64,000 nt of DNA from an uncultured delta proteobacterium (GCA_963712115.1 CAVQGX010000018.1:95127-159126), one strand, 5' to 3'; positions 7,432 through 41,312 are shown, counted from the first letter of the stretch. The notes: generated by a model not told the origin, from the letters alone. Translations and numbers: made by a program.

Positions 7432-7751
7432 TGGGTAGTGGCAAGACATCATAAGCAAAGTTATTGAGGATAAACATCCATAACATGATCCTGTGATTAG
7501 TTTCTTTGTCAGTTCAAGAGGACAATATTTAGTCACAAATGACAAAATGTGGCGGTGATGGCATCAAAATATAGTGACACCATAAATGGCGTGTACTATT
7601 GACTTTTCACCTTTTGATGATCAATATAACTGTGGTTTACAGGGATGTATTGGTTTATACTTTTATGACTACACGACTCTGCAAGTAGTATGTGTAGAGA
7701 TAAATAGTGCAGAAGCTGTCAATTGTTTTTAAAGAGCTAAGGATTTGTGAG

Positions 7752-13186: not shown

Positions 13187-14935
13187 ATGAGATTACCAGA
13201 AGGCCTTCAGATAACCAACTTGCTTAAGAGATGGCGGCTTGAGGAGCACCTCACTCTGTATCTCCTTGCCATTGCTGTGGGCATACTGGGTGGCTATGGA
13301 GCCATTCTGTTCCGGCTACTAATAAAAGGTTTTCAGTTAATATTCTACCAAAACAGTAGCGACTTTCTTTCCTTTGCCCACAAAGTCCCATTTTATTTGA
13401 AAGTTCTTATCCCAGCCATAGGGGGATTGCTTGTAGGGCTCATCGTCCGCTGGGGTACTGAAAAGGCAAGGGGTCACGGAGTCCCGGAACTCATCGAGGC
13501 CGTGGTTCTCAGGGGGGGAAGGATTTCCTGGCGGACGGCTGCAGCGAGGGTGTCTGCCGCGGCTGTCACTATAGGTTCAGGCGGATCCGTGGGTCGAGAG
13601 GGGCCGATCATACATATAGGTTCATTCTTAGGTTCTGCCGTGGCCCAACTTATGCGCTTGACCAGGGACAGGGAACGTATTTTGATGAGCTGTGGCGCTG
13701 CAGCGGGAATAAGCGCTACCTTTCATGCCCCCATTGCCGGCATGCTCTTTGCCGTAGAGGTGCTTCTGGGAGACTTTTCCCTGGGGACTTTCTCTCCAAT
13801 AATTCTGGCCTCTGTCACGGCGGCAGTGATTTCCGGCTTTCATTTGGGAGACTTTCCAGCCTTTATAGCACCTTCTTTCCAAATAGTTTCTTTCTGGGAA
13901 TATGCTCTCTATCCCCTGCTAGGTATTTTGTGTGGTCTGGTAGCAGTGGGGTTTACCACAAGTCTATATTTCTGCGAGGATCGCTTCAGTAATCTACCCG
14001 TGCCTGCCTGGGTGAGACCCGCTATAGGTGGCATGTTGTTAGGTTCCATGTTGCTGGTAATACCGGAGGTTTTTGGTGTGGGGTACGGCGCAATAAATAA
14101 TGCCCTGATGAACAAAATGTCCCTCGCTCTAATGGGAGCTCTTATCTTTGGCAAAATCTTGGCAACCTCTGTTAGCCTGGGGTCAGGATCGACCGGCGGC
14201 ATCCTGGCACCTTCCCTTTTTGTTGGTGTCATGACCGGCGGGACCTTCGGCTGGTTGGTAGGAGAAGTGTTGCCAGAGCTTTCTGCAGTAAGTAACTATG
14301 CTCTGGTCGGCATGGGTGCGCTATTGGCTGGCACTACTCATGCGCCGGTGACAGCGATCCTGCTGATTTTTGAACTGTCAGGCAGCTATCACATTGTTCT
14401 GCCTCTGTTGATGGCTTGTATCCTCAGCACTATAACCGCCTCATTATTGAAGCGCGGGTCCATCTATAGTCTCAAGCTTTTGCGGCGGGGAGTTGAAATT
14501 TCCCATGGGCGAGAGCAAACGATCCTAAAAACCATTACGGTAAGAGATGTTATGGTTAGCGATGTTAAAAGCGTACTGGAGTCTGCTCCAATGGTAAAGG
14601 TGGTGGACCTCTTCAGAAAATTTAATTTATCTTGCCTCTCAGTGGTAAACCACAAGGGTGAGCTGCTGGGGATGATATCCTTCCATGATATCGCAGGTGC
14701 CGCTTCAGAGGAGGAGATGTCACATCTGCTCATAGCCAGAGATATGGCTGACACAGAGGTTGACACGGTAGTTCCCACTGACACCCTTGATAAGGTTCTG
14801 GAGAAAATGGAGGCGGAAAAGGTGGGCCAGCTGCCTGTGGTGGCAGAGGACGGCTCAGGAAAACTCATGGGGTTAGTGGTGGAGAGAGACGTGGTTAATG
14901 CTTACGAGAGTGAGTTGCGACTGCGATGGTTATGA
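13187..14935 (+). CDS. ClC chloride channel/antiporter with CBS pair
   Basis: GHGVPE, GGSVGREGP (gating Glu), GAAAGISATFHAP, GGILAP, SIY, two CBS domains. Confidence 0.92.
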   Translation: MRLPEGLQITNLLKRWRLEEHLTLYLLAIAVGILGGYGAILFRLLIKGFQLIFYQNSSDFLSFAHKVPFYLKVLIPAIGGLLVGLIVRWGTEKARGHGVPELIEAVVLRGGRISWRTAAARVSAAAVTIGSGGSVGREGPIIHIGSFLGSAVAQLMRLTRDRERILMSCGAAAGISATFHAPIAGMLFAVEVLLGDFSLGTFSPIILASVTAAVISGFHLGDFPAFIAPSFQIVSFWEYALYPLLGILCGLVAVGFTTSLYFCEDRFSNLPVPAWVRPAIGGMLLGSMLLVIPEVFGVGYGAINNALMNKMSLALMGALIFGKILATSVSLGSGSTGGILAPSLFVGVMTGGTFGWLVGEVLPELSAVSNYALVGMGALLAGTTHAPVTAILLIFELSGSYHIVLPLLMACILSTITASLLKRGSIYSLKLLRRGVEISHGREQTILKTITVRDVMVSDVKSVLESAPMVKVVDLFRKFNLSCLSVVNHKGELLGMISFHDIAGAASEEEMSHLLIARDMADTEVDTVVPTDTLDKVLEKMEAEKVGQLPVVAEDGSGKLMGLVVERDVVNAYESELRLRWL

Positions 14936-14937
14936 AA

Positions 14938-15160
14938 AGGCAGCTGGCAGCGGACAGCCTGCAGCAGGCAGCGATAGGACAGGGGACAGAAGTCGGAAGT
15001 CAGAGGTCGGAGGTCGGAAGACAGAGGACAGATTTTTCTGATGGGTGCAGCTTTCCCCGCCCGCCTCGCCTGAGCGCGCCTCAGGCGGACGATGGCTGGC
15101 AGGCAGCCGCTATCATGAAAGACAAAGCTGGCAGCTGAAGGCTGATAGCTGAAAGCTCAA
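14938..15160. repeat. 7-mer arrays with a central palindrome
   Basis: ggcagct/ggcagcg, cagaagt/cggaagt/cagaggt, ctgaagg/ctgatag/ctgaaag; cgcctgagcgcgcctcaggcg. Confidence 0.55.
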
Positions 15161-15167
15161 AAAACAA

Positions 15168-16271
15168 ATGACCGATTACCGCGACATATTGGACAGCATA
15201 GACCGAGGTATTGTCACCCTAGATCTTCAGGGTAAGATTACCTCCTGTAACCGAGCCCTGGAAGAAATACTGGAAGTGGAGGCAAAGACGATTGTCGGTC
15301 ATTCTCTGGAAGAGGCCTTTAGAAGGGAAGATCCTTTTTACCAGTTGTTGCAAGAATCTATTCAAGAAGAACCACTTCTCCAGGACAGGGACCTGGCTTA
15401 TACCAGCAAAAAAGGCAGGATCAAACCGCTGCGGGTTACAGCCTTTCCCCTCAAGAAGAAAACAGGAGAAAGGGTAGGGGGAATTTTGCTGGTAAAAGAC
15501 ATGACCGAAATTCGCAAGTTGGAAGAGAGAGTCCAGCGGGCCTCAAGGCTTGCAGCCTTGGGTCAACTGACCCAGCGACTTGTCCATGAAATTCGCAACC
15601 CACTGAGCGCTATGGATATCAATCTCCAGCTCCTACAGGAACGTCTGGGGTCCCGCAGCGAGGATCCTGAGATTGGCAGGTATTTGGAGATTATAAGTAC
15701 GGAAACTAGGAGGCTCAATGAAGTACTGCGTAACGCCCAGGTTTTCTCCAAGCCAGAATCGCCGGATCTGGAGACAGTTGACCTTCACCAGATAATTGAC
15801 CAGGTGTTATTCCTCATAAAGGAAGAAGCGTTTCGCAAAAAAATTGAGATCTCCGAGAGCTTGCGGGCCAAGCATAATATGGTCAAGGCTGACCCTGATC
15901 AGATGAAGCAGGTTTTCCTCAACCTTTTCAAGAACAGCATCGAGGCGATGAGCGAGGGTGGTAAATTCGAGGTGCTTTCAAGAAATGATGTCCAGGGCAA
16001 AATCATTGGAGTAGAACTGGTGGATACGGGGAGCGGCATCCCCATGGCCAACCTGCAGCGCGTCTTTGACCCGTACTTTACAACCAAGAAAAAAGGCACC
16101 GGTCTAGGGCTCAGTATTGTCCACAATATTATTGCCCAGCATGGCGGAACCATTGATGTAACCAGCTGGCTGGGCGAGGGGACGATTTTTAGCATAATAC
16201 TGCCCCTTGCGTCAGGTGAGAAAGAAAACAATGGAGATGCAAAGACCAAGAATCCTGATCGTAGACGATGA
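15168..16271 (+). CDS. Cytoplasmic PAS histidine kinase
   Basis: PAS, HEIRNPL H-box, N box, DTGSGI, FDPYFTTK, GTGLGL; no TM segment. Confidence 0.92.
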   Translation: MTDYRDILDSIDRGIVTLDLQGKITSCNRALEEILEVEAKTIVGHSLEEAFRREDPFYQLLQESIQEEPLLQDRDLAYTSKKGRIKPLRVTAFPLKKKTGERVGGILLVKDMTEIRKLEERVQRASRLAALGQLTQRLVHEIRNPLSAMDINLQLLQERLGSRSEDPEIGRYLEIISTETRRLNEVLRNAQVFSKPESPDLETVDLHQIIDQVLFLIKEEAFRKKIEISESLRAKHNMVKADPDQMKQVFLNLFKNSIEAMSEGGKFEVLSRNDVQGKIIGVELVDTGSGIPMANLQRVFDPYFTTKKKGTGLGLSIVHNIIAQHGGTIDVTSWLGEGTIFSIILPLASGEKENNGDAKTKNPDRRR

Positions 16272-17589
16272 GCCCAACATACGCCAAGGTCTTGCAGAGG
16301 CCCTCGACGATCAGGGCTATGAGATTGAACAGGCCGCGAGCGGTGAGGCCGCCTTGGAAATTATCAGGTTGAAGCCCTTTGACCTCGTGCTGATTGATCT
16401 GGTCATGGAGGAGATGGACGGCATAGAGGTCTTGCGGGAGATCAATAAGGAATGGCCTCAGACTGAGGTGGTGATCATCACTGCCCACGGTACCATTGAA
16501 ACGGCGGTTAAGGCTCTCAAGGAGGGTGCATACGATTATCTTACTAAGCCGATTAATGTGAAACGGTTCCGCTCCTATATACACAACATCCTGCGAGCCC
16601 AAGAGTTACAGGAGGAAAATAGGCGGCTAAGAGAACAACTTCGTACTGAGCAAGACTACAGCCAGATCATCGGCCGAAGTGAAAAGCTTCTTACCATGCT
16701 GGAGATGATAGACCAACTGGCGCCAACTGATGTCACCATTCTTATCGAAGGGGAGAGCGGCACTGGTAAAGAGCTCGTGGCCCATGCCATCCACCAGAAG
16801 AGCGGGAGAGGGCAAAAGCCTTTCATCTCGGTTAACTGTGGCGCCTTGCCCAGAGAACTTATCGGTAGTGAACTCTTTGGCCACGAGAAAGGCGCTTTTA
16901 CCGGAGCGTCGCAACAGAAACAAGGGAGATTCGAACTGGCTGACCGTGGTACACTTTTTTTGGATGAAATAGCTGAAATGAACCTGGAAGTCCAGGTGAC
17001 ATTATTGAGGATCTTAGAAGAAGGCCGATTTCGTCGGGTCGGAGGCACCCGCGAAGTCAAGGTGAATGTAAGGGTGATTGCCGCTACCAACAAGAGTCTC
17101 AAAGAGCAGGTCAAAGGAGGTAGATTCAGAGAAGATCTCTTCTATCGGTTGAACGTAGTGCGCATGAGTCTTCCACCCTTGCGTGAGAGACAAGAGGATA
17201 TTGAACCCCTGGCGCAGCACTTCTTGGACACTTTCTCAGCCAAGTACCACAAGTCCAATCTCAAGTTTGCCTCAGAGTTAAGCGAAAGACTGGCCCACTA
17301 TCAATGGCCGGGAAATATCCGGGAGTTGAAGAACTGCATCGAGCGGGCCGTAATTCTGACACGCGAACCGGTAATTGGGCTGGATCTGCTTCCCGAAAGG
17401 CTACAGCGAGAATCTGACCTGCCGACAAGGGCAGGAGTTTCTGTGGGCCTGTCCCTGGCTGAGATGGAGAGGGAAATGATTAGCCAGACCTTGGAGCACA
17501 CAGGAGGCCACCGGAAACGCACAGCCGAGATTCTGGGAATAAGCGAAAGGGATCTGTATTACAAACTTAAGAAATATCAGCTCAAATAG
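16231..17589 (+). CDS. NtrC-family sigma54 response regulator
   Basis: REC domain, GESGTGKE, GAFTGA, WPGNIREL, Fis-type HTH. Confidence 0.95.
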   Translation: MEMQRPRILIVDDEPNIRQGLAEALDDQGYEIEQAASGEAALEIIRLKPFDLVLIDLVMEEMDGIEVLREINKEWPQTEVVIITAHGTIETAVKALKEGAYDYLTKPINVKRFRSYIHNILRAQELQEENRRLREQLRTEQDYSQIIGRSEKLLTMLEMIDQLAPTDVTILIEGESGTGKELVAHAIHQKSGRGQKPFISVNCGALPRELIGSELFGHEKGAFTGASQQKQGRFELADRGTLFLDEIAEMNLEVQVTLLRILEEGRFRRVGGTREVKVNVRVIAATNKSLKEQVKGGRFREDLFYRLNVVRMSLPPLRERQEDIEPLAQHFLDTFSAKYHKSNLKFASELSERLAHYQWPGNIRELKNCIERAVILTREPVIGLDLLPERLQRESDLPTRAGVSVGLSLAEMEREMISQTLEHTGGHRKRTAEILGISERDLYYKLKKYQLK

Positions 17590-17783
17590 TAATTAAATTG
17601 AGGGATTAAGGGATTAGAGTATTAAGAAATTAAGATAAGAATTTTGGTCGGCAATCTAGGAAATATTCATTTTTTTAATTCCTACATTTAGACATTTTAG
17701 CTCACTTTAGACAATTTAGGCATTTAAGATACGTAGGGTGGGCACTGCCCAGCGGATTCTTCAAAGCCACAAAGGGTGATTCT

Positions 17784-17892
17784 TCTGCAAAGTTTGCATA
17801 AGCCGAAAGATGCTGATATAACAGTATAAATAAAACCATTACCCCGATCTTCTCAAGCTGACAGAGTGTAAAATCTGCAAAAGTTGCAGATT
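17784..17892. promoter_or_regulatory. Two TCTGCA-N5-TGCA enhancer (UAS) palindromes
   Basis: TCTGCAAAGTTTGCATA (17784-17800) and AATCTGCAAAAGTTGCAGATT (17872-17892). Confidence 0.65.
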
Positions 17893-17986
17893 ATTATTTT
17901 TTTGTCTGTCTTCTCTATGCATAAGCTAGGCTTTTAAGTAATTGAAATTGTTAAATTAAGTCTCCAGTATAAAATAATGTCTTCCT

Positions 17987-18002
17987 TGGCATCGTCCTTG
18001 CT
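17987..18002 (+). promoter_or_regulatory. sigma54 promoter
   Basis: TGGCATCGTCCTTGCT (GG-N10-GC) after an AT-rich tract. Confidence 0.8.
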
Positions 18003-18054
18003 ACAGTGAACTGTGGACTATTTAGGGCAATTTCTGTACTGGAAGGAGAAGATT

Positions 18055-18591
18055 ATGCAGCTTGGACAATTCCTGGACAAGAAACACGTGATTCTGGACA
18101 TTCAGAACCTAGAGGGGCTTGATTGTCTGGAGGAGATCCTTGAGCGAGTTGCCACGGAGGGCTACTTGCGCAACAAGATGAAAGCTCTCGACGAGTTGGT
18201 TGAACGAGAGCAACTAGCCACCACTGCTATCGGAGGCGGTATGGCCATTCCTCATGTGTTCACCGACGAAGCCCGACGCCCTCTCATGATCATGGCAAGA
18301 TCGGTGGAAGGGGTGGCCTTCGAGTCGTTGGATGGCAAACCTGTAAATATTATCTTCGTGGCTATGGCTCCGCGGAAGGACAAGGAACTATTCATTAATA
18401 TTCTCTACCATCTGGTTCGTTTCCTGAAAGTCAAAGAGAACTTCCAAGACATTATGGAAGCGAAGGACATCGATGCTGTGCTGGAGGTCATTGCCCGGGC
18501 AAAGGACAACCTGTTGTCTGAGAAACTGAAGCGATTGGTCAAGGATGAGGTCTATCCTTACCGTGTACCCGGAACTGGTATTTCAGGTTAA
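18055..18591 (+). CDS. PTS EIIA (Ntr/fructose-type) domain protein
   Basis: EREQLATTAIGGGMAIPH phospho-His motif, FESLDGKPV; AAGGAG RBS before ATG 18055. Confidence 0.88.
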   Translation: MQLGQFLDKKHVILDIQNLEGLDCLEEILERVATEGYLRNKMKALDELVEREQLATTAIGGGMAIPHVFTDEARRPLMIMARSVEGVAFESLDGKPVNIIFVAMAPRKDKELFINILYHLVRFLKVKENFQDIMEAKDIDAVLEVIARAKDNLLSEKLKRLVKDEVYPYRVPGTGISG

Positions 18592-18635
18592 AACTGAGCT
18601 ACGAGATCTGCTAGTTAGAAGAGGATCGACTGTTG

Positions 18636-20414
18636 ATGAAGCCTTCGGCCAAAGATGAAATCGTCCGCTCTCTTAGAAATCAGTTGCTCGACTTCTTTCG
18701 TCGTTACAAGCTGAGCGATCAAACCTTTCTGATCATTGTCGCGGTGATAGTAGGGTTTTTGGGCGGCCTTGGAAGCATCTTTTTTGAGAAGCTTATCGAA
18801 TTAGGCCAACATTTCTTTTTTGAGATTGTTCCCCACATAGTTGGAAACCCCAAATGGCTCATAATTCTGATTCCCGCCTTCGGAGCGGTATTTCTCGCTC
18901 CCCTCATCTACTTTTTTCCGGTTGAAGCCAAAAGTGATGGCGTTCCGGCAACCATGGAAGCTGTAGCTCTAAAGGGCGGCATCATTAAGGTGCGTACCTT
19001 CTGCACCAGGATGCTCGCCTCTGCCATTACCCTCGGGTCGGGCGGCTCAGCAGGTAAGGAAGGCCCCATCATTCAGATCGGCGCATCGATAGGCTCCGCA
19101 GTTGGCCAGTTCTTCAAAGTTTCCGGAGAGAGGATGAGGGTGATGGTGGGCTGCGGTGCCGCGGCTGGCCTTGCCGCCATATTCAACGCACCCATTGCCG
19201 GAGTGCTTTTTGCGCTAGAGGTGGTGCTCGGAGAATTCAGCGTGCATAGCTTCAGCCCCATTGTCATCTCATCGGTGGTGGCAACTGCTGTCAGCCGGGC
19301 TTGGCTGGTAGAAGGTGCTGCCCTGAAACTCCCACCCTACCAGCTGTTCAGCTACTGGGAGATTGGTTTCTATGCGCTCCTCGGCATCGCTGCCGGTGTA
19401 GTCTCTGTGTGCTTTACCAAGGCCTTGCATAAGGTTGAAGAACTGTTTCATCGTCATGCTCCGGTCAAGAGCCATTGGCAACCAATACTGGGCGGCTTGG
19501 TAGTGGGAATGATCGGTTTCTTTTTTCCTCATATTCTCGGTTGTTCATATGCACCTATCACCGAGGCTATTCAGGGTAATTTTCTGTGGAACACCTTGCT
19601 GGCCTTGCTCGTACTCAAAATAATTGCTACCGCTTTTACTCTTGGTTCCGGAGGCTCTGGCGGCATCCTCTACCCATGCCTTTTCATGGGTGCTACGCTC
19701 GGAGGTATTTTGGGTTACGCATTTAATCTTCTGGCACCCGGAATCGCCCCCTCAGCAGGTGGTTATGCCCTGGTTGGCATGGGAGCCGTGCTAGGAGCCG
19801 CGGTCCAAGCACCCATGGCCGCCATCATGATGGGCTTCGAATTAACTGGAAGTTATACCGTTATCCTCCCACTAATGACTGCCTGCGTTTTGGCCACAGT
19901 GGTTCACCGCAGAATTATGCGTCACTCAATCTACACGCAAGCTCTGGTGGATCGTGGCATCGACATCTCGGCCGCCCGGGAGATGGGGGTGCTTACCATT
20001 CTTACCGTGGCTGATGTGATGAGTCGCGAGGTGCCGAAGATTCCCAGTAACCTGCCTTATAACGAGGTGGTGCGTCTTTGCCTCACAGGGCAGGGCAATT
20101 ATCTCTACACCACCGACGAGGAGGACAACCTGGAAGGAGTCATCTCATTTCAGGACATAAAAGAATTCATCTACGATGATCAACTCAACGGGCTGGTTTT
20201 TGCCGGGGATCTGGCCAATCGCGATGTGGTGTACGTTACCCCGGACGAGACTCTGGCTTCTTCCCTGAACAAGTTCAGTTACATTGATATGGAGGAGCTC
20301 CCAGTGGTGGGTGAAGATGACGGTTTCCGTCGGCTACTGGGAATCATCACCCGAAGCGAGCTGATGAAGATTTACCGAAAAGAAATGCTAAAACGCGTTA
20401 TGATTGAATCTTAG
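18636..20414 (+). CDS. ClC-family transporter with CBS pair, variant selectivity motifs
   Basis: SDGVPA, GGSAGKEGP, GAAAGLAAIFNAP, GGILYP, SIY, CBS pair. Confidence 0.9.
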   Translation: MKPSAKDEIVRSLRNQLLDFFRRYKLSDQTFLIIVAVIVGFLGGLGSIFFEKLIELGQHFFFEIVPHIVGNPKWLIILIPAFGAVFLAPLIYFFPVEAKSDGVPATMEAVALKGGIIKVRTFCTRMLASAITLGSGGSAGKEGPIIQIGASIGSAVGQFFKVSGERMRVMVGCGAAAGLAAIFNAPIAGVLFALEVVLGEFSVHSFSPIVISSVVATAVSRAWLVEGAALKLPPYQLFSYWEIGFYALLGIAAGVVSVCFTKALHKVEELFHRHAPVKSHWQPILGGLVVGMIGFFFPHILGCSYAPITEAIQGNFLWNTLLALLVLKIIATAFTLGSGGSGGILYPCLFMGATLGGILGYAFNLLAPGIAPSAGGYALVGMGAVLGAAVQAPMAAIMMGFELTGSYTVILPLMTACVLATVVHRRIMRHSIYTQALVDRGIDISAAREMGVLTILTVADVMSREVPKIPSNLPYNEVVRLCLTGQGNYLYTTDEEDNLEGVISFQDIKEFIYDDQLNGLVFAGDLANRDVVYVTPDETLASSLNKFSYIDMEELPVVGEDDGFRRLLGIITRSELMKIYRKEMLKRVMIES

Positions 20415-20457
20415 ACGCAATACTAAATCCCACCATCCCTAGCTTAACCCAAAATTC

Positions 20458-20522
20458 ACCCATTGCTGGTTTGACCACATATGGGTAGTTTTACCCAGTT
20501 TTGGTCAAGGCATGAAATGGGT
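20458..20522. promoter_or_regulatory. Array of ACCCA-N4-TGGGT-like palindromes (candidate operator)
   Basis: ACCCATTGCTGGTT, GACCACATATGGGT, ACCCAGTTTTGGTC; 20471-20508 is itself an imperfect inverted repeat. Confidence 0.5.
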
Positions 20523-20855
20523 AAAAATTTTTGTTTACTACACCTCCGGAAAAGGTAGTCTCCTTTTGCATCCATTCTTTTTCCTTGCATCCATTGCGCT
20601 AATTATATAGATTAACAAGAAATACTCCTTTTCAGGCGCGCGCATGATGTTGTATTCCCCGGAGATGCCAGTGCAGAGATAAGTTTGTCTTGCAGCGAGA
20701 GTTACCGTTCGCAATTCATCTTCGCGTACAGTTCAGCCAGTTGTTGGCTGTACAGATGGAAAACTGGTACTCCGAAGGCGCAATACTTTCCCTTAATCAA
20801 CCTTGGATTTAAGCAAAAATTCTTGGAATAAACCCGCAAGCGCAGTGGAGAAAAC

Positions 20856-21908
20856 ATGGAGTGGGAAAGAATTATCTTGATGGTGCTCGGCATTATCGTA
20901 CTGTGCTCCTTTTTCCCCTTTTCAGTTATTTCCTTCCATAAGTACAGATTGCCCAAGAAGCGCCGCGAGTATGAACGCATACGAAGGATTTTGGGCAAGG
21001 ACAAAGATACCGGCGAGGAAGAAACATTACAGGAGCTCGTTCAAGAGGAGTACAAAGGCAGAGATTACATCCTGCCGGTATGTTTTGTTACGTTGTTTTG
21101 CGCTCTCGGGTTCTGGGTTCTTTTCTCGGACATACCACCCATAATTTTGACTGGAATTTCAGCCGGCGAGTTCGGCGATACGAGTTCAGGCGCGTTGCCC
21201 TATACCCACCTTAGTCTGGTGGCCATGGGTATGGCAATTCTCGGCAGCTATGTCTGGTCAATCCAGTATATCGCCAGGCGACTTATCAATCTGGACCTAT
21301 CGCCCGGGGCATATTACAGCATGGGGACGCGCATTATTTTTGCTACATTTGTCTCCCTGACTTTTCACCACTTCATTCAGTCAATGTATCCCGAGGCCAG
21401 GAAGGAAATGATTGAACTACTGCCTGTTATTGCATTTTTCACTGGCGTATTCCCCCAAAGTGCCACGCAATACATCCAGGAAAAACTGCTTGTGTTCAAA
21501 AAGTTGGGAAAAGGGGCACATGAGCTGTCCTTGGAGATGATCGAGGGAATGAACTTGTTCCACAGAGTGCGACTGTCCGAGGTGGGCATCGACAATGCGC
21601 AAAATCTCGCTGAGGCTAATTTAGAGGAACTGATTCGGAAAACATCTTTTAACCCCCGACTGCTACTTGATTGGATCGCCCAGGCCAAGCTGTATGTAAT
21701 TGTCAAGGATCAGATCAGCAGCCTGCGGAGGGTGGGCGTCAGAACAGTCCTGGACTTTCAAGCAGCCGGGGCAGAAAACGGGCTTTCAACCCTGGCCCAG
21801 CTATCTGAGATGTCCCAAGAGCAGCTAGCTACCGTGCACCGGGTGATCAGCGAAGATCCAGACGTGGATACCATAGCCAGAGCGCGGAAAAATCTGAGTG
21901 AAAGTTGA
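20856..21908 (+). CDS. Uncharacterised membrane protein (~5 TM) with C-terminal HhH-like cytoplasmic domain
   Basis: Hydrophobic helices, then IEGMNLFHRVRLSEVGIDNAQNLA and LRRVGVRTVLDF HhH-like repeats; GGAG RBS. Confidence 0.75.
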   Translation: MEWERIILMVLGIIVLCSFFPFSVISFHKYRLPKKRREYERIRRILGKDKDTGEEETLQELVQEEYKGRDYILPVCFVTLFCALGFWVLFSDIPPIILTGISAGEFGDTSSGALPYTHLSLVAMGMAILGSYVWSIQYIARRLINLDLSPGAYYSMGTRIIFATFVSLTFHHFIQSMYPEARKEMIELLPVIAFFTGVFPQSATQYIQEKLLVFKKLGKGAHELSLEMIEGMNLFHRVRLSEVGIDNAQNLAEANLEELIRKTSFNPRLLLDWIAQAKLYVIVKDQISSLRRVGVRTVLDFQAAGAENGLSTLAQLSEMSQEQLATVHRVISEDPDVDTIARARKNLSES

Positions 21909-21942
21909 GGCTGGAGAACGCTCCGCGCTAAAGGAGGCAAAG

Positions 21943-23238
21943 ATGCTAATATTTATTAGCGATTTGCATTTCATCGATGGTACAGCCGGTGAACATAATG
22001 TTCCAACTGATGCTTTCAAGATTTTTTTTGAGGATATTGCCGGAACGGTAGACTGGTTAAGCCGCGATGGTCGCAAGATAGAAGAGATTAAACTTATTTT
22101 TTTGGGTGATACGTTCGATTTATTGAGAACAGAGATGTGGTTTGACTATCCAGAGACTGAACGGCCTTGGGGAAATAACGAGGCAAAAATCGAGATGAAC
22201 GGCAACACCATATTTGACGCTATTATCAATAAAAATCAAGCTACCTTTGAATTGTTGAGCGGTCAATTGAAAGATGAATTCGGTCTTCCGGTTGAGCCGG
22301 AGAGAATTTACCTTCCTGGTAACCACGACCGGTTATGCAACAAATATCAAAGCTTGCGTGACAAGGTGTGCAAAAGTATGGGTATACCTCTTCGCACAAC
22401 ACCCTTTGACCACCATTTTCAGGACGTGGAGTATGCTGTCTTTGCAAGGCATGGTCACGAATATGACAAATTCAACTATGAAGGAAGCATTTCTTATGAT
22501 TACCAAGATTACATGAGAGTACCAATTGGTGATCCAATTACCACCGAGCTGGTGGCAAAGCTGCCGTGGAAGATCATGCAGAACAAAAAGATCAAAAAGT
22601 TGCCGAAAAAAGAGCGAGAAACATTAAGAAGAAATTTTCAAGACATAGAAAACGTAAGACCCTTCTCGGCTGTGATTGAATGGCTCCTGTATCAGGTCAA
22701 AAAGAGCCTCAGATTGAAAGATGTCATTGAAGACTCGGTTGATGAAGTCATAGAAGAATTTGAGCGACTAAAATTCGTAAACCAGTGGTACAAACATCAT
22801 GACAAGTGGAACGATTTCTTGGATGAGGCAGACAGAATCCAATCTGTGTTGTTTCTCCTTAAGAAATTTAAGGTCTTCCCTATGGAAAAACTAATCCCTT
22901 ACTTGGCGAGGGTGAACAGTCGTTTTGCCGAAGATGACAATCTCAAAGCAGCAGCAGATGAATATGCGCATCTGGATAATCAGATAAGATACATAGTATA
23001 CGGGCACACCCACGAGGCCAAACAGGTGGCCATACGAGTCAGAGAAGACCCTAGAGAACCTAAAGAACAAGTGTATCTGAACACTGGCACTTGGCGGACA
23101 AGATACTACAAGACTACGGAGGGTTTGGGTTTTATAGGTTGGAAAAATCTCTCCTACGTTTCTTTCTTCAAAAAAGAAGAAAGGCGGACAGATGTTCCCA
23201 TTTTTGAAACGTGGACGGGAACTTTGAAGAAAGTATGA
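21943..23238 (+). CDS. Calcineurin-like metallophosphoesterase with large helical insert
   Basis: SDLH, GDTFD, GNHD, HGH, GHTH, YLNTGTW; AAGGAGG RBS before ATG 21943. Confidence 0.88.
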   Translation: MLIFISDLHFIDGTAGEHNVPTDAFKIFFEDIAGTVDWLSRDGRKIEEIKLIFLGDTFDLLRTEMWFDYPETERPWGNNEAKIEMNGNTIFDAIINKNQATFELLSGQLKDEFGLPVEPERIYLPGNHDRLCNKYQSLRDKVCKSMGIPLRTTPFDHHFQDVEYAVFARHGHEYDKFNYEGSISYDYQDYMRVPIGDPITTELVAKLPWKIMQNKKIKKLPKKERETLRRNFQDIENVRPFSAVIEWLLYQVKKSLRLKDVIEDSVDEVIEEFERLKFVNQWYKHHDKWNDFLDEADRIQSVLFLLKKFKVFPMEKLIPYLARVNSRFAEDDNLKAAADEYAHLDNQIRYIVYGHTHEAKQVAIRVREDPREPKEQVYLNTGTWRTRYYKTTEGLGFIGWKNLSYVSFFKKEERRTDVPIFETWTGTLKKV

Positions 23239-23318
23239 GCCCAAAATTACCACACCACAAGCAAACATTCGAAGAAAACTTGATGTAAAACAAGTTCTAT
23301 GCAGGAGTGGAGGACTCT

Positions 23319-25106
23319 ATGCCTGTTACAGCAGACATAGTTATGTGGGGGATACGGGCGGGTATCAGGTTGGCCCAACAGGGCAGACAGGCCTATGTTG
23401 AAGTCACCATAAACCGGGAGTTGACCTTACCTTTGCCCAACTACAATCCGAAGGTGTCTGTGGGCACCGCCGAGGGATATTTCAGCGGTGCCGGAAAGAG
23501 GCGCCTTAAAGAGAATGCCAGGCTCAAGGAGCTCTACGAGATCTCCATGTCTGTGGACCGGCAGCTAAAGGAGAAAGAGAAAAAAGAGTTCATTGAACTC
23601 TATGTCGATTTTAAACGCGAGGAAGAGATCAAATCGGGTGTGATCACTGGTGACGAGCTAGGCCTCTCCACAGAGGCCCTCCTCTCCCTGGTAACCGTTC
23701 GCCAGTGGGCAGCCAAAAAGACTCCTTTCGCTTCCGTCTACCAAAGAATTATTGGCACACTCATCGACATCGGCGTAGATTATTTCGCCAACACCCCCGG
23801 GGCCATTGAGGAAAAATCATCATCAGGGAGGGTGATTAAGGGATTCCTGCAATCCATAGATGAGCTCAATTTTGCTGAAGAAAAAGTTGATCAACTGGCT
23901 AAGAACTTGTTCATTGCGACCTTAGAGACCATTGAGGAAAATCCAGACCTGCTGGGCGGGGACGAAAAGACCGAGCAACTGGTGGAGGCGGTTGCTAAGG
24001 GCTTGATCAGGGATGCTCGAAAACTCACTGAAGATCTGGCCAGCCGAGATCTTGCCAAGCAGGAAAGGATTCACGACTGGGCAAATCTGGTTTTCCGAAG
24101 TCTGTTGAGCAATGCAGGACACATGGTGCTCGCCAATCCCAGCACCTACCTGTCCGTAGACGACACTGCGGCTCAAGCCTTAATTGCTGCCGTAGGAACA
24201 TCTGTTCTCGACACTATTATCACGGAAGACTCTATAGATCTCTCTGGGCTCTTGAGCCGGGAGGGACTGGACGCAGTCATGAGCGCAGCCCTCTTCACCC
24301 TGGCCGAGAATCCCTCTATAATGGGTGTAGATCACCAGGGACTGAGGAAGCTCCTCTCTCAAATCGCCCAGGATCTTGCCCAATCATCGCTCCTGCTGAA
24401 CCCAGACATCATTCCTGAAATGATGCGACTGATTCTTGAAAGAACTGCAGCTCATGCTGATCTCCTCTGGCCAGATGAATTCCGGCAACCCGACAAGCAC
24501 CTGCTGATAACCGCCTCTCGAGAACTTCTCAACCAGCTGGCAAAACCTCCGGCCCCAGGGGATACTTGGAAACCGAATCTTACCAAGAGCCAGATTCTTG
24601 GCATAGTTGAAACAGTCTTGGATGAAGTAGTCCAAAATCCTGAATGGCTGGTGAAAGCATCTGAGAGTGAGAATGTTATTTTGGCGGATGTGGTCGAATC
24701 TGTTATGGCGGTATTACGAAAAGTACCGGCTAACCGGCTGAGCGGTGAAACAGGTGTGGAGGTGCTGAAATCTGCAATCAAGGCGGTGGCCCTGAGAAAA
24801 GATTTTGTTGAGAAAATAACTGTGGATGGAGCTCAGCAACGAGCGATTTCGGCTGCCCTTGAGAGGTTGATAGATGCGTGTCTAACAGATGGGGTAGATC
24901 CGCAAGCCCGATGGACTCTGGCCAGGGGTGAGGTATTCAGCCTGATTGCCGAAACCGCCCTAACCAAACTGGCAGAAACGGGGATATCGGAAACGAACCT
25001 CGGCACAGTGGAAAAGTTCATCCGGGAAACCGCCGAGGATCTCGCCTCGGGAAGACCCTGGGAGCTGCAGCGGTTGATTGAAAAGATCAACAGTTTAGCT
25101 GTTTGA
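23319..25106 (+). CDS. Hypothetical 595-aa acidic, Leu/Ala-rich helical protein
   Basis: Long ORF, GGAGGA RBS, no recognisable motif. Confidence 0.8.
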   Translation: MPVTADIVMWGIRAGIRLAQQGRQAYVEVTINRELTLPLPNYNPKVSVGTAEGYFSGAGKRRLKENARLKELYEISMSVDRQLKEKEKKEFIELYVDFKREEEIKSGVITGDELGLSTEALLSLVTVRQWAAKKTPFASVYQRIIGTLIDIGVDYFANTPGAIEEKSSSGRVIKGFLQSIDELNFAEEKVDQLAKNLFIATLETIEENPDLLGGDEKTEQLVEAVAKGLIRDARKLTEDLASRDLAKQERIHDWANLVFRSLLSNAGHMVLANPSTYLSVDDTAAQALIAAVGTSVLDTIITEDSIDLSGLLSREGLDAVMSAALFTLAENPSIMGVDHQGLRKLLSQIAQDLAQSSLLLNPDIIPEMMRLILERTAAHADLLWPDEFRQPDKHLLITASRELLNQLAKPPAPGDTWKPNLTKSQILGIVETVLDEVVQNPEWLVKASESENVILADVVESVMAVLRKVPANRLSGETGVEVLKSAIKAVALRKDFVEKITVDGAQQRAISAALERLIDACLTDGVDPQARWTLARGEVFSLIAETALTKLAETGISETNLGTVEKFIRETAEDLASGRPWELQRLIEKINSLAV

Positions 25107-25129
25107 TCTTTTAAAAGGAGGCCAGGTCA

Positions 25130-25936
25130 ATGATTTTCTATTTGCCATTGAAGTCGAAGAGCAAGGTTTTTGTTCTCCTTTTGGTATGGATCGCCATAGC
25201 GGCGTGTGTATCTCACGTAAAGGAACTGCGGGAAGCTCAGAGTCAATTTAGCCAGGCAGCGTCCTTGGAAAATGAGCTCCAAATTGATATGGAAGCCGGC
25301 GATGCCATTGCCATGAGCACTATGGTAACGAGCTCCTACCGACAAACGGTGAAGATACTTTCGGATCTACTCGATAGCAAAAGACAACCATTGCAGGAAG
25401 ACGGCCTCCTCGGAACCGCCTATACCCTGAAGGCGTATGCTGAATGGAGACTGGGTGATTACGAAACGGCGGTTGCCACATCGTCAGCGGCTTTGGAGGC
25501 AAAACTGTTTCCCCGCGACCTGGCCTTGATCACGGCTCTCCGAGGTCTCATAAAGAATGATCAGGCGTACTATCACATGCAAGAAAAGGACTACGCCTAC
25601 AGGGATATCAAAATACTTCTCGAGGAAGCCCTGGAGGATATCACGAAGGGTCTGGCAACAGCCGGTAAAGAGGAGAATATTCGTATCTACCTCCTCTTAT
25701 CTGAACTCATCGTTTTGAAAAACTGGACCGACCTTCGAGGTGAGCCGCGAAAGTTTGCCCGGGAGATTCCAACAAATTTTAGTAAACCGGCTGAAATTTC
25801 AGCTTGGTGCAGAAGTGCTCAACCGGTGTGGGCCATGTTCCAGGAGGAAGTGAAGAGGCTCAGGCCGGATGAGGCCCCGGCATTGATCCAAGACTGGAGC
25901 AGGAAACTCGCTGTGAAGGAGACATGTTCGAATTAG
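25130..25936 (+). CDS. Hypothetical lipoprotein, TPR-like helical
   Basis: AAGGAGG RBS; basic n-region, hydrophobic h-region, lipobox IAAC; AYTLKAYAEWRLGDY TPR-like helix. Confidence 0.75.
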   Translation: MIFYLPLKSKSKVFVLLLVWIAIAACVSHVKELREAQSQFSQAASLENELQIDMEAGDAIAMSTMVTSSYRQTVKILSDLLDSKRQPLQEDGLLGTAYTLKAYAEWRLGDYETAVATSSAALEAKLFPRDLALITALRGLIKNDQAYYHMQEKDYAYRDIKILLEEALEDITKGLATAGKEENIRIYLLLSELIVLKNWTDLRGEPRKFAREIPTNFSKPAEISAWCRSAQPVWAMFQEEVKRLRPDEAPALIQDWSRKLAVKETCSN

Positions 25937-26028
25937 AGGAAATTATAATTTGTGGCAGAAGAGACACGCGGCAACTACTCTGTTCAGAACAGTAAAGCTC
26001 TTGGATAAACAAATAGGGGAGAAAAAAG

Positions 26029-27021
26029 ATGCCGAAAAAAGCCGATGCCGTCTTTGAAGGTGGTGGGGTGAAGGGTATCGGGCTGGTAGGAGCAGTAGCT
26101 GAAATTGAGAAGGCAGGGTACGTTTTTGAAAACCTGGCGGGAACGTCAGCCGGCGCCATTGTATCTTCACTTCTTGCAGTGGGTTACAGTGCAGGGGAAA
26201 TTAAAAAAGAGCTTGAACAGCTCAACTACAACGACTTCAAAGACGAGGGCTTTTTGGATAAGCTTGGCTTCTTCGGCAAGAGCTTGAGCATTGGCTTTGA
26301 GTATGGGATCTACGAGGGGGAGATCTTTGAAAACTGGCTCGAGGGATTACTGGTGGCTAAAGGGAAGACCACCTTTGGGCAGATAAAGACGAAGTACAAG
26401 GAAGACAAGTATAAATACAAATTTCAGGCTATCGCAGCCGATATTACCGATAGGCGACTCCTTGTCCTTCCTAACGATTTGAAGTTATTTGGCATTAATC
26501 CCGATGAATTCAGCATCTCCCGCGCGGTGAGGATGAGTATGAGCATTCCCTTTTTCTTTGAACCAGTGGAGTTTCGAGACCCCAGCGGCAGAAAACATTT
26601 CATTGTGGATGGTGGACTTTTGAGCAACTATCCAATTTGGCTCTTGGATGACGGCACAGGCGATCCGCCCTGGCCCACCTTCGGGTTCAAACTCATGGAA
26701 CCGGACAAGAGAGAATTAAAGGAAGCCAAGAGAAATCCCATTAACAACCCTATAAGCTTTCTCAAGGCTATTGTGGGGACTATGTTAGACGCCCACGACA
26801 ACTACCATATCTCTAAGTCAAAGGGCGACTTCGACAGGACAATTGGTATACCAACAATAGTAACGGTTAATGGTACCGAGAAAGAAATAGGAACCACAGA
26901 CTTCAACATAACTCAGGAAGAAAGCCAGGCGCTGTTTGAGAACGGGGTGAAAGCTGCCCAGCAATTTCTCAAGAAATGGGATTTTGAAAAGTGGAAGAAG
27001 AAATACAGGCGGAAGAAGTAA
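26029..27021 (+). CDS. Patatin-like phospholipase
   Basis: EGGGVKG oxyanion loop, GTSAG nucleophile elbow, SMSIPFFF, VDGG catalytic Asp. Confidence 0.93.
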   Translation: MPKKADAVFEGGGVKGIGLVGAVAEIEKAGYVFENLAGTSAGAIVSSLLAVGYSAGEIKKELEQLNYNDFKDEGFLDKLGFFGKSLSIGFEYGIYEGEIFENWLEGLLVAKGKTTFGQIKTKYKEDKYKYKFQAIAADITDRRLLVLPNDLKLFGINPDEFSISRAVRMSMSIPFFFEPVEFRDPSGRKHFIVDGGLLSNYPIWLLDDGTGDPPWPTFGFKLMEPDKRELKEAKRNPINNPISFLKAIVGTMLDAHDNYHISKSKGDFDRTIGIPTIVTVNGTEKEIGTTDFNITQEESQALFENGVKAAQQFLKKWDFEKWKKKYRRKK

Positions 27022-27031
27022 AGACTAATGC

Positions 27032-27084
27032 TAGCCCGGATGTTTCATGGTCTCGCGACAGCAATTCATGAAACATCCGGGCTA
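27032..27084. mobile_element. MITE family A, minimal copy (also a likely bidirectional terminator)
   Basis: Perfect 18-bp IR TAGCCCGGATGTTTCATG/CATGAAACATCCGGGCTA between convergent genes. Confidence 0.8.
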
Positions 27085-27541
27085 AATCAGCTCAAAAATA
27101 CGACCAATTGCTTCTTTAGCAGTTGTCAACGTAGTGGACACCGCGAAGATTAGGAATTGTTTTGAGGCCAACTATCGGTTTGCCGATCTTAAGGCCGTGG
27201 CCGATCTCTGACAGGGTGCCGGCGCCGCCAGACACTGCCACCAGGCCGTCGGCGGTGTGAGCTATGATAACATTTCGAGCCTGACCCATGTCCGTGGCGA
27301 CTGGTATCTTGATGTATGGATTAGCACTATTGCATGAAGGCCCTGGTAATATGCCAACCGTGAGACCGCCAGCCATGGATGCGCCTTTGGCGGCGGCTTC
27401 CATGACTCCACCCAAACCACCGCAAACTAGGATTGCACCTCTTTTGGCAATCTCTTCACCAACCTCCAGAGCAAGTTGATAAATGGAGCTCTCACACTGT
27501 CCAGCACCGATAACTGCAATAATTGGTGGAGACTGGCTCAT
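27082..27541 (-). CDS. TIGR00725/LOG-family nucleotide-binding protein; 1-base frameshift near 27126
   Basis: IAVIG, CGGLGGVMEA, GILPG, GQARN, GGAGTLSE; removing one base turns the end YVDNC* into YVDTAKEAIGRIFELI*. Confidence 0.85.
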
Positions 27542-27547
27542 GAGAAC

Positions 27548-28189
27548 TTACTCCTTCCAGCCGTGCGTGCCCAGTAAATTGACAAAGCGGCAACCACCCA
27601 GATCAATTTTGGTAATTCCTTCCTTTACTCGGACAATTTTCATAAGCGCTTGAGTGTACCGATCTCCCACGGGGACGACCAGCCTTCCCCCCATAGCCAG
27701 TTGGTCCACTAGAGGTTGCGGAACGTCCGGAGACCCTGCAGTTACCATGATTGCATCAAAAGGTGCTTCCTCCTTCAGGCCGAGAGTACCGTCCCCCACC
27801 TTAAGGACCACGTTGAAGTACCCTAGATCGTCCAGGATGCGCTGCGCCCTGGCTGATAGGGTGCGGATGCGTTCAATGGAATAGATTTTCTCAGCGAGTT
27901 CTGCTAGGATTGCCGTCTGGTAGCCAGAGCCCGTGCCGATTTCCAAGACCCTCTCTTGTCCCTGCAGTTCCAGGGCTTCCGTCATCAGTGCAACCATGTA
28001 GGGCTGGGAGATCGTTTGTTTCTCGCCAATGGGAAGGGGATGATCATTGTAGGCTTGGCTGACGAGAGCTTCTTCGACGAAACGGTGGCGGGGAACTTTT
28101 CGCATAGTGTCCAGAACGCGGGCATCTTTAATGCCACGGCTGATAAGCTGGCTTTCCACCATGCGGTTGCGAGCTGTGGCATACTCCAT
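27548..28189 (-). CDS. pcm: Protein-L-isoaspartate O-methyltransferase
   Basis: [43 protein letters not shown]. Confidence 0.96.
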
Positions 28190-40003: not shown

Positions 40004-41239
40004 CTATGCAGCCTGCCTGAGCTTGCCCGCCATGTTGAACTGGGATTCCAATGGCAGTTCAAGACCTTTCATTAAAAGGTTCCAGTACACCCACTTGAAC
40101 ATCATCTTCCCCCAATGGTTGCCGAAGGTCTCCTGCAGCAAGGTGAATGGCCCTAGCCCAGGAAAGGGAAATTTGCCAGGCAAGGGTTCCACCTCATAGT
40201 TGAAGTCGAGGAGAATGGCCTTCTCGAACCCAGAAGACAAAAAACAGGTTGCATGGCCGTCGAAAGTTGGCAGGGGCTCATGACCGTCTATCTCGCGAAC
40301 CAGGTTTTCCACAACGGTATAGGACATGTAATGAGCCACCGAGCCTGCCTTTGAGGTGGGCGCGTTGGTAGCATCTCCTAATACATAGACCCGATCAACA
40401 GTCTGAGCTTTCAGGGTGCGCTGGTCCACCTGCATATAGCCCATGGGATCTCCCATCCCGGAATCCGAAATGGCCTTGTCGCCAAAGTTGGGTGGTATGG
40501 CTACCAGAAGGTCGTATCCCACCTTGTCGCCTTTGTGGGACTCGATGGTCTTTTCATTTGGATTAACCCTGGCGAGATCGAAATAGGGGGTGACCTTGAT
40601 ATTTTTCTTTTTGGCAAAGCTAGCCAAAGCTTTTGCAGCCACCGGTTTAGTGAAGATGTTGTCGATAGGGGTTACGAATTCAATCTCCACCTTGTCCCTG
40701 ACACCGTTCACCTGAAAAAACCAGTCTGCCATGAAAACAAACTCTATGGGGGCGATGGGACATTTGTAAGGAAATTCGGCAATATTGAGGACGACCTTAC
40801 CGGAACTAAAGTACTTTAGCTTATTGCGTAAGGCCACCGCCCCATCTAGAGTGTAGAAGTCGAAGACGTCTTCGCGCCAAACATCCATCATTCCTTCCAC
40901 TTCCTGGGGGACAATCCTGCAGCCGCTGGCAATTACCAGGTAATCGTAGTCGTAGGTGTCTCCTTTCGCTGTCTCCAGATAGCGCTGGTTAGTGTCAATC
41001 TTGGTTACGTTGTCGACAACAAAATCAACCCCTTGAGGAATGAAGTCGCGCTTGGGCTTGAGCACGTCCTCACTGGAGTACAACCCGAAGGGTATGAAAA
41101 GATACCCCGACTGAAAGTGATGTTGCTCGTCCTTGTCAATCATGGTGATTTGCCAGTCGCTGTCTTTCAATTCATGCCGCAGGTTAGCGGCAACCATGGT
41201 GCCGCCGGCCCCTGCTCCTAAAATGACTATCTTTCTCAT
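40004..41239 (-). CDS. sqr: Sulfide:quinone oxidoreductase-like flavoprotein (type III-like)
   Basis: GAGAGG, YDYLVIASG, KCPIAP and HATCF cysteines, LGDA..PTSKAGSVAH; GGAGG RBS before ATG 41239. Confidence 0.82.
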   Translation of the reverse strand: MRKIVILGAGAGGTMVAANLRHELKDSDWQITMIDKDEQHHFQSGYLFIPFGLYSSEDVLKPKRDFIPQGVDFVVDNVTKIDTNQRYLETAKGDTYDYDYLVIASGCRIVPQEVEGMMDVWREDVFDFYTLDGAVALRNKLKYFSSGKVVLNIAEFPYKCPIAPIEFVFMADWFFQVNGVRDKVEIEFVTPIDNIFTKPVAAKALASFAKKKNIKVTPYFDLARVNPNEKTIESHKGDKVGYDLLVAIPPNFGDKAISDSGMGDPMGYMQVDQRTLKAQTVDRVYVLGDATNAPTSKAGSVAHYMSYTVVENLVREIDGHEPLPTFDGHATCFLSSGFEKAILLDFNYEVEPLPGKFPFPGLGPFTLLQETFGNHWGKMMFKWVYWNLLMKGLELPLESQFNMAGKLRQAA

Positions 41240-41312
41240 AACGATTGCCTCCATAAAGTGTGGGAATAGATTTTTTGCATAGCACCAAAAAACAAGGTTT
41301 ATCCGCAGAGTA

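Follow-up and report, generated by a model that had tools for sequence, protein, structure and literature searches.

A conserved pair of unannotated genes, with predicted interacting products, within a strain-variable five-gene locus of an uncultured delta proteobacterium

Do five adjacent genes on one strand form a single biological system, or does the conserved unit lie within them? The question is raised by positions 20,856 to 27,021 of a 64,000-nucleotide stretch of DNA from an uncultured delta proteobacterium (GCA_963712115.1 CAVQGX010000018.1:95127-159126; the whole stretch is called the window here), which encode a membrane protein (g1), a metallophosphoesterase (g2), a large helical protein (g3), a lipoprotein (g4) and a patatin-like phospholipase (g5). 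A preliminary description had proposed a five-gene operon encoding an undescribed trans-envelope system, and had named in advance a failure of the genes to co-occur in other genomes as evidence to the contrary. The five-gene set does not co-occur elsewhere. What recurs is the g3-g4 pair, and the reading preferred here, which is given a probability of roughly 40%, is that of a modular cassette directed at the envelope, with g3 and g4 as its two-protein core. From the trans-envelope proposal, the conserved pair, the recurrence of similar roles around it and the failure of any known pathway to match the locus are retained; the five-gene unit is not.

The linkage of g3 to g4 was assessed by scanning one genome per species with a g3 profile, which gave 80 loci; of 106 pattern matches, 84 were confirmed. 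The window and a further locus (L012) brought the linkage set to 82, analyzed with purpose-made open reading frame (ORF) calls, iterated profiles and heuristic clusters; related genomes among the compared loci are non-independent. The g3 loci fall in the Desulfobacterota, Nitrospirota, Kiritimatiellales, Methylomirabilota, Planctomycetota, Verrucomicrobiota and Pseudomonadota, with Saprospiraceae/Lewinellaceae the most numerous, and the family is also present in the cultured Lewinella cohaerens DSM 23179 and Phaeodactylibacter xiamenensis KD52. At least 900 bp of downstream sequence was available in 70 of the 82 loci, from about eight phyla. g4 lies directly 3' of g3 in 47 of these 70, and in five more it is encoded on the same strand no further than 8 kb away, leaving 18 with no g4 detectable by profile. 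Seventeen of the 18 are Saprospiraceae-type, and exactly one g4 was found elsewhere in the genome in each of the four Saprospiraceae-type genomes with an unlinked g3 that were tested. The eighteenth, L012, has a divergent g3 form (g3B), and the lipoprotein that accompanies g3B there has a W...PRD motif in common with g4 (E 3e-4 and a probability of 40% by hhalign). The protein directly 3' of g3 in some Haliscomenobacter loci (c33) was considered as a candidate and is not a g4.

A similar picture was obtained among 41 relatives, where g3 matched seven genomes (five strongly) and g4 also matched seven. The five strong g4 matches adjoin g3 in the same five genomes that have strong g3 matches; the two weak ones (E 6.8e-5) sit in long unrelated ORFs. 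Within the genus, g3 was found in this genome and, weakly, in one of 17 others. The genes surrounding the pair change with phylum and are ordinary ones, such as those for arginine biosynthesis, a GNAT acetyltransferase, a type II secretion system ATPase, a TonB receptor and BipA. By these observations, g3 and g4 constitute an obligate and strongly conserved pair over many phyla.

Neither protein is recognized by existing models. g3 has no match at all among curated family thresholds, and no meaningful Pfam family was found in 20 members of its family (0/20); its AlphaFold2 (AF2) model is entirely helical (predicted local distance difference test, pLDDT, 73.6). A structural comparison by Foldseek, which the preliminary description had put forward as a check, yielded nothing for g1 or g3 at E ≤0.001, the top rows for g3 against the PDB being transcription activator-like effectors and karyopherins at E ≥0.15. 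A resemblance of g3 to G-protein-coupled receptor helices was rejected (wide VIA-align search, best Z 8.2, within noise for helical models), as was a profile match to the PDB that returned designed helical repeats only (E 0.0047). The family is large: among 1.84 billion proteins searched, its representatives at 50% identity number 946 at E ≤1e-3, 717 at 1e-10 and 466 at 1e-30. Forms of 1100-1640 amino acids (aa) match the g3 profile in three to five stretches (L031, L037, L056, L062 and other Saprospiraceae), which indicates that the helical region is internally repeated. A GNAT acetyltransferase gene precedes many of these long homologues.

g4 is a bacterial lipoprotein, as judged from its lipobox: the Cys26 column is invariant in 28/28 sequences, each with a charged and then a hydrophobic stretch ahead of it. 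Its matches to tetratricopeptide repeat (TPR) models are weak (best 14.5 bits against about 30 in Pfam), and at most two of 28 family members match any single TPR model at E ≤0.01. Pfam, NCBIfam and PADLOC contain no family for g3 or g4, and g3 has no fold match in the PDB. The earlier claim that three of the five proteins lack a recognizable family can therefore be upheld, since g1, g3 and g4 reach no curated threshold; on sequence they correspond to no family described in the libraries searched, and g2 and g5 are novel members of known enzyme superfamilies.

Whether the conserved pair might bind was addressed by modelling g3 with mature g4 from purpose-made, unpaired alignments. The complex scored 0.84 by ipSAE (interaction prediction score from aligned errors), a measure of model confidence, whereas the best of three controls scored 0.00. 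This mark is attained by 58 of 80 solved complexes and by two of 110 mismatched pairs, counts that apply only roughly to a model made from such alignments. Between runs, at least 72% of the g3-g4 contacts agree, and partner pLDDT is at least 86. The predicted interface joins g3 residues 27-63 and 124-134 to g4 residues 127-130, 140-148, 184-208 and 245-268. On the g3 side it includes the invariant residues P42, P44 and Q133 and the near-invariant Y30, T34, R37, L41, L43, L125, R132 and W134; on the g4 side it includes the invariant R129 and D130, the pair being unvarying throughout the family alignment, and the near-invariant L140 and Y187. In the model, a g4 groove lined by Arg129-Asp130 and Tyr187 accepts the N-terminal LPLP peptide of g3 together with a second conserved loop, residues 124-134. 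The modelling supports binding of g3 to g4.

The locus itself was then compared with its counterparts. The site between the ClC-type channel gene and the TIGR00725/pcm genes that flank the five genes (Table 1) is strain-variable, with at least four gene sets in close relatives: g1-g2-g3-g4-g5 in this genome; a HhH-GPD/winged helix-turn-helix gene, g1, g2 and a small lipoprotein gene in L099; genes for a membrane protein (memB), g3B and a lipoprotein in L012; and g1-g3B in L098. The ClC flank is retained at 84-96% identity beside other cargo in L012, L097, L098 and L099, and the TIGR00725/pcm flank beside other cargo in L012 and L099.

The constituents of the cassette are also found apart. Among 401 sampled genomes of the phylum, g1 was found in one (this genome), plus two weak partial helix-hairpin-helix (HhH) matches; g2 in 27; and a g5-type patatin, at E ≤1e-40, in three, where it adjoins unrelated genes. 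No g1, g3, g4 or g5 was found near g2 in 13 neighbourhoods inspected. g1 occurs in 16 metagenome loci with varying neighbours: it is followed by g2 in L097, L099 and L100 (g1 identity 76-95%), and by g3B in L098 (91%) and L103 (56%), the latter having the order g1, g3B, lipoprotein, DUF6765 protein (E 6e-91). In L102 a g1 homologue (66% identity) precedes a lysozyme/peptidoglycan-binding protein, and unrelated genes follow g1 in the other metagenome loci whose contigs reach beyond it. The L102 protein (1356-2567) is signal-less and combines phage-lysozyme, PG_binding_1 and Peptidase_C39-like domains. A g5 copy, 77% identical, follows g3-g4 in L008/L020. The cassette thus appears to have been put together from units that also occur alone, namely g1-g2, g3-g4 and g5.

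The closest relatives of the g3-g4 pair (43-49% identity) come from one genus in another family of the class. There, and in Nitrospirota metagenome-assembled genomes, tight co-oriented clusters surround the pair. The order is Amidase_3, a second type of phosphoesterase, memB, g3, g4 in L016; Amidase_3, memB, g3, g4 in L019; amidase, memB, g3, g4 and the patatin related to g5 in L020; and a g2-type phosphoesterase followed by g3 in L014. memB has an N-terminal transmembrane helix, a long helical region and two C-terminal transmembrane helices, and shows no similarity to g1; the second phosphoesterase has only superfamily motifs in common with g2. All of the hydrolases around g3-g4, i.e., the patatin, the phosphoesterases, Amidase_3 and DUF6765, are signal-less. 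A set of roles comprising a membrane protein, a phosphoesterase, g3, g4 and a lipase has therefore been rebuilt from different parts, which argues for a functional link.

These observations would be consistent with the following scheme. In the Desulfobacterota and Nitrospirota, the g3-g4 core may have recruited two kinds of partner: a membrane protein, namely g1 in this genome and the unrelated memB in others, and cytoplasmically made hydrolases whose substrates probably lie in the envelope. The latter would be the metallophosphoesterase and patatin in this genome, and in others a different phosphoesterase, a peptidoglycan amidase (Amidase_3) or DUF6765. The membrane protein and the g3-g4 complex could couple the cytoplasm to the periplasm, and the coupling would set the place or timing of hydrolase action, resulting in controlled envelope or lipid remodelling, or lysis.

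Several findings weigh against a cassette of this kind. One concerns compartments: g4 is extracytoplasmic and g3 lacks a Sec/Tat signal, so the predicted complex needs either an export route or a breach of the membrane. The N-terminus of g3 carries an acidic residue ahead of a short hydrophobic stretch and no signal peptide. In the whole family, no more than about 10 residues separate the initiating methionine from the conserved stretch with the N-terminal helix and the LPLP peptide, so that a hidden leader would have no space. Hydrolase-bearing loci are confined to a small number of lineages, some of them related (a single genus accounts for L016, L017 and L020), and most g3-g4 loci, in the Bacteroidota, Verrucomicrobiota, Planctomycetota and Pseudomonadota, have no adjacent membrane protein or hydrolase, their neighbours being unrelated housekeeping genes. 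g1, g2 and g5 are each found elsewhere without the others; of the relatives at the same site, L099 and L100 have g1-g2 without g3-g5, and L098 has g1 with g3B and without g2. g2 also has no demonstrable relationship to LpxH.

Expression data count in favour of the cassette as regards g1 and g2. They consist of assembled contigs from four metatranscriptome libraries of four studies, of which 32 of 266 pieces are listed; DNA may be present in such contigs, and a single transcript cannot be proven by them. Among the pieces listed, contigs span only the g1/g2 junction of the four junctions, bridging it in three of four runs (X15, 21471-22022; X18, 21651-22105; X19, 21822-21972). Contigs on g1-g2 were present in 4/4 runs (90-99% identity) and pieces on g5 in three. 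The listed contigs end near 23240-23249 and leave most of g3 and g4 uncovered, which is no evidence that these genes are absent or silent.

An alternative explanation for the arrangement is that there is no functional link, and that the three independent units g1-g2, g3-g4 and g5 have simply come to adjoin one another in a recombination hotspot, sharing at most a read-through transcript. This is doubtful, though by no means negligible. It accommodates the occurrence of each unit alone elsewhere, the other combinations that close relatives carry at the same site, and the abundance of miniature inverted-repeat transposable element (MITE)-type repeats, one of which borders the locus. The preliminary description had noted a MITE hairpin downstream, and this proved sound: the 18-nt arm has 258 copies (≤2 mismatches) in the 4.9-Mb genome, as opposed to one for the reversed control, and the hairpin 3' of g5 is therefore taken to be a MITE-type element. 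Its arms are 35 bp apart; elsewhere in the genome (e.g., L113-L120) most arms form inverted pairs with a spacing of about 166 bp. Contigs from the RNA libraries reach summed depths of 137-306 on the element in three runs, as expected of a repeat. In addition, g5 is 77% identical to its L008 counterpart but g3 only 45%, so the block did not simply move as one piece.

Set against the absence of a link are the recurrence of this combination of roles, with parts that are not homologous, in the Nitrospirota and a second family of the class; the independent metagenome locus L103, where g1 (56% identity) is directly 5' of a g3-type gene; and the tight organization of the genes. Five plus-strand ORFs were called at 20856-21908, 21898-23238, 23307-25106, 25130-25936 and 26029-27021. 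From the lengths of homologues (g2 431 aa, g3 595 aa) and the upstream sequence, the start of g2 was reassigned to the ATG at 21943 and that of g3 to the ATG at 23319. With these starts the intergenic gaps from g1 to g5 are 34, 80, 23 and 92 bp, and a strong ribosome-binding site of the GGAG/AGGAGG type precedes every start; the preliminary description, with good ribosome-binding sites and gaps of 23-92 bp, had come close to this. No plus-strand terminator-like site was found between the genes, the three plus-strand sites being at 20482, 20695 and 21105. GC content over g2 (22000-23000) drops to 0.41-0.44 from about 0.50 in the flanks, a dip too mild to make a case for foreign origin.

The cassette could also be a conflict system, acting in abortive infection or against phages or competitors, in which g3-g4 and a membrane partner sense a breach of the envelope or membrane, or injected DNA, and unleash swappable effectors (patatin, phosphoesterase, amidase or DUF6765) against the membrane or wall of the cell itself. 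Such a role is improbable but has appreciable points in its favour: the site is strain-variable with alternative cargo, the genus distribution is patchy (this genome and, weakly, one of 17 others), effector-like genes are exchanged among loci while the core is kept, the hydrolases, like lysis effectors, are without signal peptides, and signal-less g3 would meet the periplasmic lipoprotein g4 only upon a breach. The similarity of g5 to phospholipase effectors, albeit weak, also bears on it. In PADLOC-DB v2.0.0, the matches of g5 are confined to phospholipase effector models of a generic kind, with E 4.7e-10 for the best; g2 has one match, at E 0.016, and g1, g3 and g4 have none. The match of g5 to the NCBIfam anti-phage phospholipase has E 4.6e-9.

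The same comparisons count against a conflict system, because no PADLOC model fits g1-g4 and the patatin scores far below the cut-offs of the families concerned (36 against 400 bits, 27.6 against 200). g5 was examined as a CapV-type effector of a cyclic-oligonucleotide-based anti-phage signalling system (CBASS) and rejected (NF041079, 27.6 bits against 200, with no CD-NTase, the cGAS/DncV-like nucleotidyltransferase). The earlier statement that no cyclase motif is visible agrees with the absence of any cyclase model match among the five proteins and 31 neighbours. The genes within about 20 kb are of a housekeeping kind, and the 31 neighbour proteins gave domain-level PADLOC matches only. g3 was unmatched in 72,556 plasmid and 50,697 phage records. 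Most g3-g4 pairs have no effector, and those of Saprospiraceae keep their position beside GNAT or arginine-biosynthesis genes. Of what had been suggested at the outset, the comparison with PADLOC and the survey of the neighbourhood thus went against a defence role, with no system match and no island context, and g3 showed no phage or plasmid copies.

A more novel reading can also be formulated, in which g3-g4 would form the centre of a trans-envelope device, so far undescribed, that spans phyla. Cytoplasmically made g3 would be caught through its LPLP peptide by the periplasmic lipoprotein g4, by way of an unrecognized export route or a breach of the inner membrane. In the Desulfobacterota and Nitrospirota the device would be wired to interchangeable membrane proteins and signal-less hydrolases, as a breach-triggered or gated module for self-lysis or defence. 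This reading is speculative and unlikely.

The individual enzymes were examined for evidence of function. Patatins are characterized by an oxyanion motif GGxR/KG, a nucleophile motif GxSxG and a catalytic aspartate in DGG/A. g5 matches PF01734 over residues 8-206 (109.7 bits, cut-off 27.7), and its GGGVKG, GTSAG and VDGG motifs, with the Ser-Asp catalytic dyad, are intact; it is signal-less, and among solved structures PlpD (5fqu, E 3.4e-10) comes closest to it. g2 reaches the PF00149 threshold (23.1 bits, cut-off 21.5), and its metal-binding motifs D-x-H (D8, H10), GD (G56, D57), GNHD (127-130) and GHxH (355-358) are invariant in 19/19 aligned sequences. The preliminary description was accordingly right that the catalytic motifs of both enzymes are complete. 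g2 also carries a long helical insertion of roughly 150 residues and belongs to a family of more than 1092 homologues; no PDB relative was found by sequence or family profile.

These two activities could in principle belong to a lipid A or phospholipid pathway, with g2 an LpxH-like pyrophosphatase, g5 a lipase remodelling membrane lipids and g3-g4 accessory. One source automatically names g2 homologues UDP-2,3-diacylglucosamine pyrophosphatase LpxH, the patatin fold is lipolytic, and an acyl-CoA-synthetase-like gene is 3' of g3-g4 in L021. Such a pathway is nevertheless highly improbable. When g2 was tested as an LpxH, no NCBIfam LpxH model matched at E ≤0.1, and the family profile matched LpxH in the PDB (5b49) at just E 0.15, over about 68 positions and one motif. 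There is no further lpx gene nearby, and the presence of g2 in 27/401 genomes is too patchy for an essential step of lipid A synthesis.

The association of g2 with DUF6765 was also considered. A g2-like phosphoesterase directly adjoins DUF6765 in L159 (7056-9610), and DUF6765 occurs in 8/26 genomes with g2 and 56/374 without; kin genomes are non-independent, so this co-occurrence supports no conclusion. With DUF6765 as the anchor, 30 loci with flanks of about 1.5 kb contained one g2-like gene, two distant patatin genes (from one genus) and no g1, g3 or g4 (0/30), and the link to the genes of the locus is weak. DUF6765 proteins are present in 64/401 genomes of the phylum; the L103 copy is at 7701-8801, and copies lie beside distant patatin-like genes in L195 and L198 (two genomes, one genus). 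No paper naming the family was found in the literature searched.

The C-terminus of g1, with an HhH-like domain at about residues 223-350, falls below Pfam thresholds for RAD51D_N (25 against 27.3 bits), DUF4332 (21.5 against 23.2) and HHH_5 (21.4 against 27), and some homologues have PF21794 and PF14520 as precomputed Pfam annotation. All 172 homologues are annotated 'hypothetical', and the ESM Atlas gave only unnamed 'hypothetical' clusters for g1 and g3. The g1 family is nonetheless highly conserved, an alignment of 12 sequences having 57 invariant columns. The AF2 model (pLDDT 62.5) is confident in the C-terminal domain only; the Foldseek search that found no match at E ≤0.001 was made with this model, whose membrane part is of low confidence. 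By the positive-inside rule, the HhH-like domain may be read as facing the cytoplasm.

Upstream of g1, the preliminary description had reported an operator-like array. Short repeats are indeed present (TTGCATCCATT occurs twice, 19 bp apart), as is an imperfect palindrome of 17 nt, and the putative array is confirmed only in part. No sigma-70-like site was found in this intergenic region, and no sigma-54 consensus (≤2 mismatches) upstream of g1, the whole window having 32 such matches against 36 expected.

Table 1. Features of the locus and its immediate flanks (positions in the window).
Feature	Coordinates	Strand	Basis
ClC-type chloride channel gene, left flank	18633..20414	+	NCBIfam ClcB-like, below cut-off
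Upstream intergenic region of g1	20415..20855		Short direct and inverted repeats
g1, 350-aa multi-pass membrane protein, HhH-like C-terminus	20856..21908	+	ORF, sub-threshold Pfam
g2, 431-aa calcineurin-like metallophosphoesterase	21943..23238	+	PF00149, invariant metal-binding motifs
g3, 595-aa all-helical repeat (solenoid-like) protein	23319..25106	+	AF2 model, family alignment
g4, 268-aa helical TPR-like lipoprotein, lipobox Cys26	25130..25936	+	Alignment of relatives
g5, 330-aa patatin-like phospholipase	26029..27021	+	PF01734
MITE-like hairpin, two 18-nt arms (27032-27049 / 27067-27084)	27032..27084		Inverted repeat
TIGR00725-family gene and pcm (protein-L-isoaspartate O-methyltransferase), right flank	27116..28189	-	NCBIfam, above cut-offs

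The left-flank ClC gene matches the NCBIfam ClcB-like model with E 1.2e-122 (410.6 bits, cut-off 482). The housekeeping genes within about 20 kb include a sigma-54 two-component pair, a phosphotransferase system (PTS)-IIA gene, two ClC channels, pcm, a GalU-like gene, DegP, Hsp20 and Hdr-like genes, and there is no defence-island context among them. At 13187-20414, the two ClC-type channel genes, which are paralogues and contain CBS domains, bracket the sigma-54-dependent two-component pair and the PTS-IIA(Ntr)-like gene, and a sigma-54 consensus with one mismatch (17987-18002) is directly 5' of the PTS-IIA gene. About 14 kb from the locus, a small protein (41316-41837, minus strand) matches PADLOC effector models through a TIR domain (E 2.7e-8), and 40007-41356 (minus strand) matches the model for type III sulfide quinone reductase of the selenoprotein subtype (641 bits, cut-off 525).

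Since the five-gene set is no conserved entity, the effort of cloning it whole as one system can be spared. What remains is a widespread unannotated pair, whose family numbers at least 946 representatives at 50% identity, from Desulfobacterota to Bacteroidota. Its interface, predicted with high confidence, falls on invariant residues of both partners and so offers precise and cheap mutational tests. The disagreement between predicted binding and predicted compartments points to an export route not yet known or to a membrane-integrity sensor, either of which, if true, would be new envelope biology.

The g3-g4 pair is far from anything characterized. No description of it was found in the literature searched (coverage excluded subscription papers and supplements), where DUF4332, and the combination of patatin, metallophosphoesterase, lipoprotein and anti-phage, likewise returned nothing relevant. 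g5 resembles CapV, the 'DS2_1' anti-phage phospholipase, secreted PlpD, VipD and ExoU in fold family and catalytic motifs; it differs in scoring far under the cut-offs and in having no cyclase or signal-generating gene at its locus. g2 resembles LpxH and the calcineurin-like phosphoesterases in its full metal-binding set and in reaching the PF00149 threshold, but at about 431 aa, with its insertion and no significant similarity to LpxH or solved phosphoesterases, it forms a distinct family. NlpI, LpoA and BamD are helical-repeat lipoproteins of the Gram-negative envelope that act by binding partners, and those partners are exported. g4 differs from them in that g3, its predicted partner, has no export signal, and in giving no match to their families in Pfam or NCBIfam.

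A closer likeness is found in type III secretion, where the class II TPR chaperone LcrH_1 binds a PxLxxP peptide of the helical translocators CopB and CopD (PMC4536800). g4 is similarly small and TPR-like, is encoded beside the large helical g3, and has a predicted groove that holds an N-terminal proline-rich peptide. It differs in being a lipoprotein, in the g3 motif (LxLPLPxF/Y, not PxLxxP), in its reversed gene order and in the absence of type III secretion system genes; g4 was tested as such a chaperone and rejected (TIGR02552, 13.9 bits against a cut-off of 104.8). A class II chaperone holding its translocator is the nearest analogy for the predicted g3-g4 interface.

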